Part shown: positions 3,742-38,607 of the stretch, piece after piece | Layout of the letters: each line of letters starts with the position of its first letter | Numbering within the stretch: the first letter of the stretch is position 1 | Sequence record: KM190144 | Strand: one strand, 5' to 3' | Length of the DNA stretch: 64,000 bases | Source: Escherichia phage Av-05 | The notes under the pieces: generated by a model | The model's database searches: none | The model's input: only the letters and a program-made list of their open reading frames with translations | Told to the model about the DNA's origin: nothing | Translations under genes and position numbers: made by a program

Positions 3742-3817
3742 TGGTTGCGAGTATTGGGATCGAACCAATCTGGACTGGCTTATGAGACCAGCGAAGTCAC
3801 CAGACTTCAAACTCGCA
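3742..3817 (-). tRNA. tRNA-Met (anticodon CAU), CCA encoded
   Basis: Manual cloverleaf: acceptor TGCGAGT/ACTCGCA, anticodon loop CTCATAA, T-loop TTCGATC. Confidence 0.75.
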
Positions 3818-4473: not shown

Positions 4474-4551
4474 TGGTCTGTCCGGTTGGATTTGAACCAA
4501 CGACCTGATCATCCCAAGTGACCCGCGCTACCCAAGCTGCGCTACGGACAG
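4474..4551 (-). tRNA. tRNA-Pro (UGG), CCA encoded
   Basis: Acceptor CTGTCCG/CGGACAG, D-stem GCGC, anticodon loop CTTGGGA, T-loop TTCAAAT. Confidence 0.8.
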
Positions 4552-4635: not shown

Positions 4636-4726
4636 TGGCGGTTCCTGAAGGATTCGAACCTTCGGTGGGGAGATTCCTCCCAACGGCTTAACAGGCCGTC
4701 ACCATCGACCACTCGGTCAAAGAACC
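4636..4726 (-). tRNA. Class II (long variable arm) tRNA with anticodon GUU (Asn codons); identity ambiguous
   Basis: Acceptor GGTTCTT/AGGAACC, Ser-like D-arm ACC-GAGTGGTCGAT-GGT, anticodon stem ACGGC/GCCGT with loop CTGTTAA, 19-nt variable arm TGGGAGGAATCTCCCCACC, T-loop TTCGAAT, discriminator G, CCA encoded. Confidence 0.55.
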
Positions 4727-4735
4727 AGAATATTT

Positions 4736-4812
4736 TGGTGGATCTGGTTAGATTCGAACTAACAATCCCTCGATTAAAAGTCAAGTGCCTTAAACCATTT
4801 GGCTACAGATCC
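4736..4812 (-). tRNA. tRNA-Lys (UUU), CCA encoded
   Basis: Acceptor GGATCTG/CAGATCC, anticodon loop CTTTTAA, T-loop TTCGAAT. Confidence 0.8.
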
Positions 4813-5034: not shown

Positions 5035-5123
5035 TGGAGGAGGCTGACAGAATCGAACTGTCACCATATCTCTACAGCGGGACTGGGTTCAAACCAGCTT
5101 GTGCACCATGCACCCCAGCCTCC
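5035..5123 (-). tRNA. tRNA-Ser (UGA), class II, CCA encoded
   Basis: Acceptor GGAGGCT/AGCCTCC, anticodon stem GCTGG/CCAGT loop TTTGAAC, long variable arm, T-loop TTCGATT. Confidence 0.65.
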
Positions 5124-5201: not shown

Positions 5202-5295
5202 TGGAGGAAGATGCCAGACTTGAACTGGCACACCCATTTCTGGGTTACTATCTCCTTAGCAGGGAGACCCCTTACCAAATTAGGGTTAATCTTCC
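5202..5295 (-). tRNA. tRNA-Ser (GCU), class II, CCA encoded
   Basis: Acceptor GGAAGAT/ATCTTCC, anticodon stem TCTCC/GGAGA loop CTGCTAA, long variable arm, T-loop TTCAAGT. Confidence 0.7.
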
Positions 5296-5316: not shown

Positions 5317-5406
5317 TGGTGGAGAAGGAGAGAATCGAACTCTCAAGCCGTTTTACCAGTCAGCACATTTCCAATGTGGTTTCGTCGCCAATCGATTTGC
5401 TTCTCC
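5317..5406 (-). tRNA. tRNA-Ser (GGA) candidate, class II, CCA encoded
   Basis: Acceptor GGAGAAG/CTTCTCC, T-arm GAGAG-TTCGATT-CTCTC, anticodon loop TTGGAAA with one mismatch in stem; D-arm irregular. Confidence 0.5.
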
Positions 5407-5492: not shown

Positions 5493-5574
5493 TGGCACGA
5501 GAGTGAGGAATCGAACCCCTTAGTCACTGGTTTTGGAGGCCAGCCTTCACCCAGTGAAGTTACGCTACTCTCAT
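5493..5574 (-). tRNA. tRNA-Trp (CCA) candidate with atypical, extended D-arm region
   Basis: Anticodon loop CTCCAAA followed by ACC as in E. coli tRNA-Trp; T-loop TTCGATT; acceptor ATGAGAG/CTCTCGT; 79 nt before CCA. Confidence 0.5.
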
Positions 5575-6572: not shown

Positions 6573-6648
6573 TGGTGGGAGTGGTAGGCTCTGCCCCTAC
6601 GTCCTCTCGATTATCGGTCGAGCGATCTACTAACTGATCTACACTCCC
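6573..6648 (-). tRNA. tRNA-Ile (GAU)-like gene with non-canonical T-loop and C33
   Basis: Acceptor GGGAGTG/CACTCCC, D-arm GATC-AGTTAGTA-GATC, perfect anticodon stem CTCGA/TCGAG with loop CCGATAA, T-arm GTAGG-GGCAGAG-CCTAC lacks TTCGA, CCA encoded. Confidence 0.45.
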
Positions 6649-37093: not shown

Positions 37094-38338
37094 TTAGAAT
37101 AACATATCTCTGCTGATTGCTTTACGAATAGCATCAATACGGGCTACTCGCACAGCCTCACCAATCTCTTTACCCTTCTTACCTTTTTCCAGAAGGGGTT
37201 TTGTTATAGCTTTAGAATCAACTTTTGTCATAGCGTCGTAGGCTTCCAACAAAATATGACCCTGAGGATAAGGTTTATGTCTAAAATCACCACCTCTCCC
37301 TTTAGCATCACAATAACACGCATCTGCAAGTGTGTAAACCTTTATTTTCTGATCAGCTTGTCCAGCAGCTTCAAATATTTTCATGATGCTTTTTGGTTTC
37401 AAACCGTTGTTACCATCTTTGGGGGAGATGGCGTGCACTTTTGTGTGATTTTCCGCAACATATTTTGCCGTGTCACGATAGATATTATAAATCTTCAACC
37501 TTTCACACAAGGATTGGATAACATCTACACCAGCTTTTTCATGACCATGAAGATTACCATTGTCCTTATGAGTCACAGCTTTGCCAAAATCATGGCACAG
37601 CACAGCAAACTTGGTCAGTGGATCAGCTCCTAATTCATCAGCAACCCGTAACGCTAGAATTGTATGGGTGTAAGCATCCCCTTCTGGGTGATGTTCTTTA
37701 GGTTGTTGCACACCACGTAGGGCTTCCAGTTCAGGGAGTTCGCCAATACGTCCCATATTGACAGCAAAAGATCTGAAATAACCACTCTTTAAGGCTTTCA
37801 ACATTTCCTTCCATTTACGCTCGGCGCTTATTTCTGCCAAAGAGTGTCGGTTGTCATAAGCCAGTTTAAAAGTTTCTGGATGGATATGCCATTCTTCCCC
37901 AAGCTGGGCTTTAAATCTAAACAGGCGTAGAATACGTAATGGATCTTCAATAAATGCCTGTGATGTATGACGTAATGTTTTAAGTCCTAAGTCAACCTGA
38001 CCACCAAAAGGATCTATAATTTCACCACTCTCAACATCCATCGCCATGGAATTGATGGTTAGGTCTCTACGTGCCAAATCCTCTTCCAGAGTTACATCTG
38101 GACTAAAGCATACCTCAAATCCTTTATGGCCTTCACCTGTTTTTCTTTCTGTGCGTGCAAGAGCGTACTCTTCTCTTGTTTCTGGGTGAAGATAAACTGG
38201 AAAAGATGCGCCAACTTGTGTGAACCCTCTTTTCAACATCTCTTCATGCGTAGCACCAACAACCACATAATCACGGTCTGATATTTCACGACCTAACAAT
38301 TTATCTCTTACTGCGCCACCTACCAAGTATACCTTCAT
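37094..38338 (-). CDS. cca: CCA-adding enzyme (class II tRNA nucleotidyltransferase with HD phosphohydrolase domain)
   Basis: N-terminus MKVYLVGGAVRD...DRDYVVVG...RDLTINSMA matches bacterial Cca head domain; HD-type motif LCHDFGK; start at ATG overlapping upstream stop (ATGA). Confidence 0.85.
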   Translation of the reverse strand: MKVYLVGGAVRDKLLGREISDRDYVVVGATHEEMLKRGFTQVGASFPVYLHPETREEYALARTERKTGEGHKGFEVCFSPDVTLEEDLARRDLTINSMAMDVESGEIIDPFGGQVDLGLKTLRHTSQAFIEDPLRILRLFRFKAQLGEEWHIHPETFKLAYDNRHSLAEISAERKWKEMLKALKSGYFRSFAVNMGRIGELPELEALRGVQQPKEHHPEGDAYTHTILALRVADELGADPLTKFAVLCHDFGKAVTHKDNGNLHGHEKAGVDVIQSLCERLKIYNIYRDTAKYVAENHTKVHAISPKDGNNGLKPKSIMKIFEAAGQADQKIKVYTLADACYCDAKGRGGDFRHKPYPQGHILLEAYDAMTKVDSKAITKPLLEKGKKGKEIGEAVRVARIDAIRKAISRDMLF

Positions 38339-38607
38339 TTCTTCGCCCACGTATTCATATAATTAACAATATCTTTTACGGCTCTCTTTCCGTCTAGTGG
38401 ATAAACTATGTCATCGCTCATCCCACCGTGTTTTAGCATTGCTACCAGTCTAGTATATACCTCTTTTGGTCTTTTGCAAGTTCTTTTCTTCCATTTATGA
38501 CCGTCTGGGGAGTACTCCTTATCTTCAAGAGAGATATGAAGTATATCCCCTATAAACTCTTTAGCCTGTGTGCTGTAAAGTGGACGGTGGAATATGTAGA
38601 ATTTCAT
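38335..38607 (-). CDS. Hypothetical protein (about 91 aa) translationally coupled to cca
   Basis: Track ORF trimmed to ATG after AGGAGCAAGCA. Confidence 0.45.
   Translation of the reverse strand: MKFYIFHRPLYSTQAKEFIGDILHISLEDKEYSPDGHKWKKRTCKRPKEVYTRLVAMLKHGGMSDDIVYPLDGKRAVKDIVNYMNTWAKK

Follow-up and report, generated by a model that had tools for sequence, protein, structure and literature searches.

By the textbook account, a long variable arm is restricted to the transfer RNAs (tRNAs) for Ser, Leu, bacterial Tyr and Sec, on which it acts as an identity mark for the synthetase. Known departures from this pattern, the nev-tRNAs of nematodes (PMC3333845) and the allo-tRNAs of bacteria (PMC5389517), carry a long arm on anticodons of amino acids whose tRNAs are normally short-armed, but they follow the synthetase of the arm (Leu or Ser) and mistranslate. 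Here, we describe a gene of similar outward design in Escherichia phage Av-05 (sequence record KM190144), within a 64,000-nucleotide (nt) stretch of DNA that we refer to as the window. The gene lies at 4636-4726 and encodes a tRNA with an Asn anticodon (GUU) and a long variable arm; it belongs to a sizeable and conserved family of long-arm tRNA-Asn(GUU) that is nearly restricted to phage sequence. Unlike in the nev- and allo-tRNAs, the identity marks of this family (1-72, 2-71 and 73) follow the anticodon and not the synthetase of the arm, and the acceptor/T-stem geometry of the window tRNA is 7/5 rather than the 8/4 or 9/3 of allo-tRNAs.

ARAGORN called a minus-strand tRNA-Asn (gtt) whose ends fall exactly at 4636 and 4726, with the anticodon at position 35 of 91 nt, and Rfam RF00005 matched over its whole model at 57.0 bits (E=1.3e-10; gathering score 29), with the surplus nucleotides falling in the variable region. 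The score exceeds the family threshold and the universal tertiary nucleotides are intact (U8, A14, G15/C48, G18G19, U33, U54U55C56 and A58), which identifies the gene as a tRNA. UG separates the acceptor 5' strand from the D-arm, G26 follows the D-arm, and the variable region is made up of U44, a stem of 5 base pairs (bp; 4677-4681 with 4668-4672), the loop GAAU (4673-4676) and an unpaired 3' spacer, CACC (4664-4667). A first-pass annotation, made from the letters of the window, had reported a long-arm tRNA with a GUU anticodon and a 19-nt variable arm, and ARAGORN, Rfam and direct reading of the sequence all bear it out. Its label of a 'Ser-type' D-arm proved only partly specific: the D-arm is indeed of class II type, but E. 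coli tRNA-Tyr has the same D-loop architecture as tRNA-Ser. The minimum-free-energy fold retained the anticodon, variable and T hairpins (z = -2.73 relative to shuffles) but did not reproduce the D-arm, pairing the CACC spacer with the 3' strand of the D-stem instead; we set this pairing aside as an alternative structure, attributing it to a limitation of minimum-free-energy folding.

We compared the window tRNA with canonical tRNA-Asn and with class II tRNAs. It shares the anticodon loop CUGUUAA, G73 and the decoding task with the tRNA-Asn of E. coli (asnT) and of phage T5, the latter a canonical, short-armed class I tRNA of 78 nt, and its acceptor and 3' end are nearly identical to those of T5 (GGUUCYU / AGGAACC-G-CCA). 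The 5' strand GGUUCUU matches the T5 sequence GGUUCCU at 6/7 positions, the 11-nt 3' end is the same in the window tRNA, T5 tRNA-Asn and the long-arm tRNA-Asn of jumbo phage 7t3, and the 7t3 gene contains the whole 28-nt T-arm and 3' end of T5. Canonical tRNA-Asn differs in having a 5-nt variable loop and a 4-bp class I D-arm, where the window tRNA has 19 nt with a helix and a class II D-arm, and E. coli tRNA-Asn has U1-A72 and U39 where the window tRNA has G1-C72 and G39. The stem-loop variable arm and enlarged D-loop are those of the class II tRNAs for Ser, Leu and Tyr; the T-arm is the same as in E. coli tRNA-Tyr, and G73 and G1-C72/G2-C71 are shared with tRNA-Ser. Unlike class II tRNAs, the window tRNA bears the anticodon of a class I-type isotype and leaves 4 nt unpaired on the 3' side of the arm, compared with 1 in Ser, 2 in Leu and 3 in Tyr, and the acceptor stems of the family lack the Ser signature. 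Whole-length identities to the E. coli Asn, Tyr and Ser genes were 57-60% and did not discriminate among them; the nearest neighbors of the D-region among ~1,200 phage tRNAs were scattered over Lys, Cys, Ser, Trp and others, and we draw no origin from them.

The gene holds a conserved place in its tRNA array. The tRNA region of the window is 95.6% identical to that of Escherichia phage vB_EcoM_TH18 (hereafter TH18), whose record is classified in Vequintavirinae, and to three sibling records. The TH18 copy has GUU and is 97.8% identical to the window tRNA-Asn, with differences confined to the apex and loop of the arm, and the 16 tRNAs that ARAGORN finds in the complete TH18 genome include no tRNA-Asn other than the long-arm one. 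The order Tyr-(Ile)-Gly-...-Gln-Ser-Ser-Ser-Lys-Asn-...-Pro-...-Leu-...-Phe is common to the window, Cronobacter phage GAP31 and Salmonella phage PVP-SE1, which makes the tRNA-Asn an orthologue at a conserved position. Homologues annotated as tRNA-Asn of 84-91 nt occur in GAP31, EC152, 4MG, VIK251, PVP-SE1, the 348-kb Salmonella phages 7t3 and SE_PL, and phiKZ-like Pseudomonas phages; we read GUU directly in TH18, GAP31, PVP-SE1, 7t3 and the phiKZ-like T2P, whereas for 4MG, EC152, VIK251 and SE_PL we relied on a tRNA-Asn annotated at the match. Related long-arm Asn forms are found in >300 GenBank phage records. These include an 83-nt form (variable region GUC-GAAA-GAC-AAC), read in phage SP15 and present in 290 T5-like GenBank records at coverage >=80%, and an 86-nt form read in Phapecoctavirus nepoznato; phage groups with the arm include Vequintavirinae, Stephanstirmvirinae, Demerecviridae, Phikzvirus and jumbo phages.

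To reach beyond named phages, we searched IMG/VR viral contigs for CTGTTAA followed by 20-32 nt and GGTTCRAATCC, a pattern whose listed matches give lower bounds and not prevalence. This yielded at least 106 distinct long-arm tRNA-Asn(GUU) with variable regions of 10-24 nt, which have little in common beyond the universal tRNA positions, and ~100 metagenomic homologues listed also keep GUU. Canonical and long-arm tRNA-Asn occur together at 33/112 loci, suggesting that the two forms are not equivalent. The same pattern run against one genome per prokaryotic species gave 120 listed matches, only 5 of which were true long-arm tRNA-Asn, 3 of these 5 lying within clusters of 11-17 tRNAs, as is typical of phage DNA; the remainder were mostly chance matches, Ser tRNAs with an accidental CTGTTAA and intron-containing archaeal tRNA-Asn. 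With the window tRNA as the query, blastn found nothing at E <= 10 in 5,426 complete E. coli genomes. The remark of the first-pass annotation that a long-arm tRNA reading AAY codons is non-standard for bacteria stands. In a literature search whose coverage omits most subscription journals, we found no account of a long-arm phage tRNA-Asn, and the family is apparently new to the literature. Related GenBank records label the gene plainly as tRNA-Asn, and a 2025 study of phage Sf14 noted that its tRNA-Asn scores best as Lys in the isotype models of tRNAscan-SE, 'significance unknown'.

We next examined whether the arm is a maintained structure. RNAalifold independently predicted the variable-arm helix from a MAFFT alignment of 88 family members, in which we scored the three aligned arm pairs against 500 shuffles. 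Paired cells made up 80.9% (shuffles, 48.6%), cells with double changes numbered 96 (shuffles, 30.5), and the covariation score was 0.748 (shuffles, 0.203), a value reached by 0/500 shuffles; sliding one partner by 1-3 columns as a control gave a score of at most 0.21. The arm is thus maintained as a helix by compensatory changes across the family. A typical member has a stem of 3-4 bp, compared with 5 bp in the window copy, and a GNRA tetraloop, which accounted for 49/62 of the four-nucleotide loops among the listed matches, GAAA alone for 32. The unpaired 3' spacer is most often 4 nt (CACC, CAUC, CAAC, CGCC), whereas the mode for tRNAs of the same contigs is 1 nt in Ser (n=75), 2 in Leu and 3 in Tyr, and Ser stems run to 5-7 bp. 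The count of unpaired bases at the base of the arm has been described as a key discriminator among class II tRNAs (PMC9976931). With 4 unpaired nucleotides, the window copy falls outside the Ser-type arm geometry (5-7 bp, 0-2 unpaired 3' nt).

Across the family, the acceptor stem points to asparagine. The bacterial Asn identity set consists of the anticodon and G73, with U1-A72 as a determinant for the amidation of Asp-tRNAAsn (PMC9976931). Counting over the listed IMG/VR matches and the tRNAs of the same contigs, we found the loop CUGUUAA in 107/108 long-arm and 32/35 canonical phage tRNA-Asn, and G73 in 86% and 100%, respectively. U1-A72 was present in 54/106 long-arm and 20/37 canonical tRNA-Asn, compared with 0/75 Ser and 5/44 Tyr tRNAs. 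Pair 2-71 was G-C in 42% of long-arm Asn, 51% of canonical Asn and 95% of Ser tRNAs, and C-G in 34% of long-arm and 46% of canonical Asn; A3-U70 was found in 21% of long-arm Asn and 79% of Ser tRNAs. Where a long-arm and a canonical tRNA-Asn share a contig, their 1-72 pairs agree in 32/39 unique combinations (Fisher p = 6e-6, on non-deduplicated counts 18/4/2/17). The pair is U1-A72 in the phiKZ-like (Pseudomonas) member and G1-C72 in members from enterobacterial phages, including the window copy. Pseudomonas makes Asn-tRNA by transamidation, and E. coli uses asparaginyl-tRNA synthetase (AsnRS) directly. The window copy has GUU within CUGUUAA and G73; it lacks the class I architecture (4-5 nt variable loop) and U1-A72, which is needed only where Asn-tRNA is made by transamidation. 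From these acceptor, 1-72 and discriminator patterns we infer that the family is under selection as tRNA-Asn, an identity that is well supported by sequence comparison.

As for the arm, antiphage nucleases are known to attack host tRNA-Asn. The PARIS effector AriB cleaves E. coli tRNA-Asn(GUU) between positions 40 and 41, with recognition involving U36-A-A-U39 and the D-loop, and the Lys, Thr and Asn tRNAs of T5 together rescue cells in which host tRNA-Asn is cleaved (PMC12409363). P2 OLD also cuts E. coli tRNA-Asn (PMC12445682), and the tRNA-Tyr of SP15 needs its longer variable loop to neutralise Retron-Eco7 (PMC12673091). The window tRNA is an isoacceptor of the host tRNA cut by AriB and P2 OLD, and it carries G at position 39, where the AriB motif and E. 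coli tRNA-Asn have U. It resembles nuclease-resistant phage tRNAs (T5 tRNA-Lys/Thr/Asn against PARIS, SP15 tRNA-Tyr against Retron-Eco7, a phage tRNA-Thr against P2 OLD) in being a phage-encoded stand-in for a host tRNA cut by defence nucleases. SP15 tRNA-Tyr, a direct precedent for escape by way of the arm, shows that a remodelled variable arm can be the resistance determinant, and the long-arm tRNA-Asn may resemble it in this respect. Known escapes differ in being mostly substitutions in the anticodon stem-loop (PMC12445682, PMC12409363) and not a new arm.

The facts with direct support are the gene and its fold, the constancy of GUU, the covariation of the arm, the Asn-like acceptors and the near restriction to phages, and we place a probability of roughly 70% on the following explanation of them as a whole. 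The gene would be transcribed together with the other tRNAs of its minus-strand array in this Escherichia phage of the Vequintavirinae, and host AsnRS, reading the GUU anticodon and G73, would most likely charge the tRNA with asparagine for decoding AAC/AAU. The arm would be retained because host defence nucleases that cleave tRNA then act less readily on the phage tRNA, which still replaces or supplements host tRNA-Asn. Such a tRNA would serve a genome rich in Asn codons, at 54 per 1000 in the long open reading frames (ORFs) of the window, 34 of them AAU; this is higher than the ~40 per 1000 of E. coli.

Several observations weigh against this explanation, some touching the charging of the tRNA and others the purpose of its arm. 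On charging, the window copy has nearly all of the E. coli serine set (a long arm, G1-C72, G2-C71, C11-G24, G73 and an arm stem that, at 5 bp, is among the longest of the family), so some serylation is conceivable, although the 4-nt spacer speaks against this. AsnRS, like other class II synthetases, approaches the tRNA from the variable-arm side and might therefore be hindered by a long arm. There is also a U73 subfamily of long-arm GUU tRNAs, with at least 13 members (L009:2050, L041:1780, L048:730, L052:2505, L054:2931, L106:1440, L116:13362, L119:9367, L123:209 and others), mostly G1-C72; most share the D-arm UUGCUUUAG...AAAAGU, and they often lie beside a G73 tRNA-Asn in the same contig. 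The first-pass annotation had raised the prospect of a tRNA charged by seryl-tRNA synthetase (SerRS) that mis-decodes Asn codons, and in this account Ser would be placed, fully or in part, at AAC/AAU as deliberate or tolerated mistranslation of the kind known from nev-tRNAs and allo-tRNAs. The worry is legitimate for the window copy, which adds U3-A70 to the serine-set features above, and tRNA-Tyr is said to have gained serine acceptance in vitro, in work by Himeno et al. in 1990, when its arm was lengthened by two nucleotides. A GUU anticodon on a full serine-type body (G1-C72, G2-C71, A3-U70, G73), with a 5-bp arm and a 1-nt spacer, does exist in an alphaproteobacterial metagenome-assembled genome (L197:3976-4064, minus strand); it is a Ser-bodied Asn-decoder of the kind the annotation imagined, but a cellular one. 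For the family, serine is disfavoured by the acceptor stem, with U1-A72 in half of the members, G2-C71 in only 42% and no preference for A3-U70, and by a 1-72 pair that follows the co-resident canonical tRNA-Asn. The arm, with its 4-nt spacer and mostly 3-4 bp, departs from the 1 nt and 5-7 bp of Ser in the very geometry that has been treated as decisive (PMC9976931). Moreover, phage tRNA sets that are otherwise near-complete contain no Asn tRNA but this one, the Ser tRNAs of the window have U73 or A73 and not G73, and long-arm tRNAs for other amino acids in the same contigs have the discriminator that fits their anticodon; we consider a serine or dual identity improbable. A simpler link to serine, a recent mutation of tRNA-Ser(GCU) or an error of sequencing or assembly, could appeal to the single base between GCU and GUU and to a tRNA-Ser(GCU) only 476 nt away (5202-5295, as the annotation had stated and ARAGORN confirms). 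It is refuted by identities of just 50% to the window's Ser(GCU) and 47% to its Ser(GGA), by conserved gene order, and by GUU, never GCU, in every orthologue and homologue examined, from TH18, GAP31 and PVP-SE1 to 7t3 and T2P, with independent GenBank records annotating tRNA-Asn; we give it next to no credence. Low Ser identity, the absence of G73 from the window's own Ser tRNAs and the T5-like acceptor and 3' end together indicate a tRNA-Asn lineage and not a Ser gene with a changed anticodon.

On the arm, covariation speaks to the upkeep of the helix and not to its reason, and that the arm helps to escape host tRNA nucleases is an analogy, which may hold. Position 39 is altered in 57% of canonical phage tRNA-Asn and 47% of long-arm ones among the listed matches; canonical forms change it about as often, so the arm is unneeded for breaking the AriB motif. 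The T5 tRNA-Asn that was tested experimentally is the canonical 78-nt form and not long-armed, and Septu and Retron-Eco7 cut tRNA-Tyr within the variable arm, so that an arm could also be a liability. Alternatively, the arm might have no selected function and be a legacy of tRNA-gene duplication or recombination in phage arrays, on an otherwise normal Asn decoder, its helix persisting only because an unpaired insertion would be harmful. Consistent with this, the long-arm Asn, Cys, Thr and Ile tRNAs of one contig (L123) share very similar arm spacers and T-arms, a likeness that suggests they spread through duplication or recombination; the apical loop varies freely between phages that are 95.6% identical (GAAU in the window, AUGAAUC in TH18), arm length spans 10-24 nt, and T5 gets by with a canonical tRNA-Asn that has the same acceptor stem. 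A mere legacy sits less well with an arm that persists over very deep divergence and in unrelated phage groups, with its recurrent design of GNRA loop and CAYC spacer, and with its near absence from cellular genomes, and the 33/112 loci that keep both forms are hard to explain if the two are equivalent; we hold this account to be possible though doubtful. In a further alternative the molecule would not decode at all but act as a decoy, its tRNA shape sequestering a nuclease of the host that cuts tRNA or some other factor that binds tRNA. Inhibition of AriB through competition from overexpressed viral tRNAs has been raised by others (PMC12409363), and several stable tRNA-like RNAs of T5 have no assigned function. 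A decoy would hardly need the intact anticodon loop, discriminator, CCA and tertiary nucleotides of the window tRNA, nor the family-wide conservation of Asn identity elements, nor would it be expected as the sole Asn tRNA in a phage with heavy Asn codon use, and we think it very unlikely. In the T5 record (L251, 30284-33949), the stable or tRNA-like RNAs RNAI, RNAIII, RNA1-3 and RNAX are interleaved with the tRNA genes, and the same region has a small ORF labelled tRNA amidotransferase.

The long arm is not confined to asparagine. ARAGORN identified long-arm Cys, Thr, Met (some initiator-like), Ile, Lys, Trp, His, Asp, Glu and Pro tRNAs in the same viral contigs (for example, among contigs L006-L125, L123:1324-1407, L123:1414-1498, L055:8996-9086 and L025:1347-1430), with the same arm design of 3-5 bp, a GNRA loop and a 3-4-nt spacer. 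Their discriminators fit the anticodon: U73 in Cys, G73 in Trp, C73 in His and A73 in Lys, Ile and Met. Roughly, in the listed contigs, ~30% of Cys tRNAs are long-armed, ~13-15% of Met, Ile and Thr, ~10% of Lys, and none of Gln and Phe. We offer tentatively, as an idea that is rather doubtful at present, that phages have evolved a tRNA structural class of their own, with a short GNRA-capped arm and a 3-4-nt spacer added to tRNAs whose cellular counterparts are all short-armed, and with cognate charging, in which the arm would serve as an immune shield or handle. Asn would be its clearest case, with Cys, Thr, Lys, Ile, Met, Trp, His and Asp also included, and PARIS AriB, OLD and others would be the nucleases concerned. 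If true, this would add a fourth arm geometry beside those of Ser, Leu and Tyr and a new, body-level route of immune escape.

The long-arm tRNA-Asn indicates that such an arm is compatible with a tRNA identity set by the anticodon, and it raises the question of what selects for the arm. Since host tRNA-Asn, tRNA-Lys and tRNA-Thr are known targets of antiphage nucleases and SP15 tRNA-Tyr provides an example of escape, the family may be viewed as a natural variant set for body-level immune evasion. Annotation by isotype models and tRNA-seq mapping will misjudge long-arm phage tRNA genes, and the orthogonality of these tRNAs to SerRS and AsnRS is relevant to genetic-code engineering.

The features of the gene and its immediate neighbors are collected in Table 1. 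ARAGORN places 14 tRNAs between 4068 and 9659, including the long-arm tRNA-Asn, all on the minus strand, as are all tRNAs and genes surrounding 4636-4726.

Table 1 Positions of the long-arm tRNA-Asn gene, its structural parts and its flanking tRNA genes in the window.
Feature	Position	Strand	Details
tRNA-Asn(GUU) gene, long variable arm	4636..4726	(-)	91 nt including encoded CCA; ARAGORN and Rfam RF00005
Acceptor stem, 5' strand	4720..4726	(-)	GGUUCUU (positions 1-7; G1-C72, G2-C71, U3-A70)
D-arm	4701..4717	(-)	ACCG-AGUGGUCGA-UGGU; class II-style D-loop with two extra nt; includes C11-G24
Anticodon arm	4683..4699	(-)	ACGGC-CUGUUAA-GCCGU
Anticodon	4690..4692	(-)	GUU, reads AAC/AAU
Variable region	4664..4682	(-)	U-GGGAG-GAAU-CUCCC-CACC, 19 nt
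T-arm	4647..4663	(-)	GAAGG-UUCGAAU-CCUUC
Acceptor 3' strand, discriminator and CCA	4636..4646	(-)	AGGAACC 4640-4646, G73 at 4639, CCA 4636-4638
tRNA-Lys(UUU)	4736..4812	(-)	9 nt upstream of tRNA-Asn in a co-oriented array; ARAGORN
tRNA-Pro(UGG)	4474..4551	(-)	next gene downstream in the array; ARAGORN

Elsewhere in the window, a CCA-adding enzyme of 418 amino acids with PolyA_pol head, RNA-binding and HD domains is encoded at 37094-38350 on the minus strand. The annotation of the TH18 genome also lists RNA ligase 2 and an adenosine deaminase, and the three together suggest a phage toolkit for tRNA maintenance and repair. Relative to the TH18 record, 4066-41739 of the window is collinear with 69.9-107.8 kb and 41740-64000 is inverted to 58.4-36.2 kb, which indicates a rearrangement or a differing assembly start or permutation.

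Other tRNA genes in these arrays are unusual as well. The serine tRNAs at 5035-5123, 5202-5295 and 5317-5406 (minus strand) have the discriminators U73, U73 and A73, respectively, and not the bacterial G73, and their D-arms are unusual; across the listed viral contigs, U73 was found in 26/75 phage Ser tRNAs. The tRNA-Lys annotated in the PVP-SE1 and GAP31 records is 86-87 nt long (L003:2848-2933 and L001:2746-2832). The PVP-SE1 gene owes its added nucleotides to an insertion in the D-arm region and not in the variable arm, and ARAGORN misreads its anticodon; the GAP31 gene received no ARAGORN call.

Finally, five tRNA-like genes on the minus strand of the window were missed by ARAGORN at default settings. 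A 98-nt gene at 7680-7777 combines the anticodon loop UUUAUAA (UAU, Ile/AUA) with a long variable arm, the stem of which is approximately ACGG/CCGU; relaxed ARAGORN assigned it a 4-base anticodon, and the Rfam tRNA-Sec model matched weakly (29.4 bits). The window makes frequent use of ATA codons, at 17 per 1000. The other four are an Arg(UCU)-like gene with an aberrant D/variable region (7397-7479), an Ile(GAU)-like gene with C33 and an odd T-loop, GGGGCAGAGCC (6576-6648; Rfam tRNA, 53.4 bits), a Trp(CCA)-like gene (5499-5570), and a gene with a CAU anticodon and an unusual D-arm (3742-3817).

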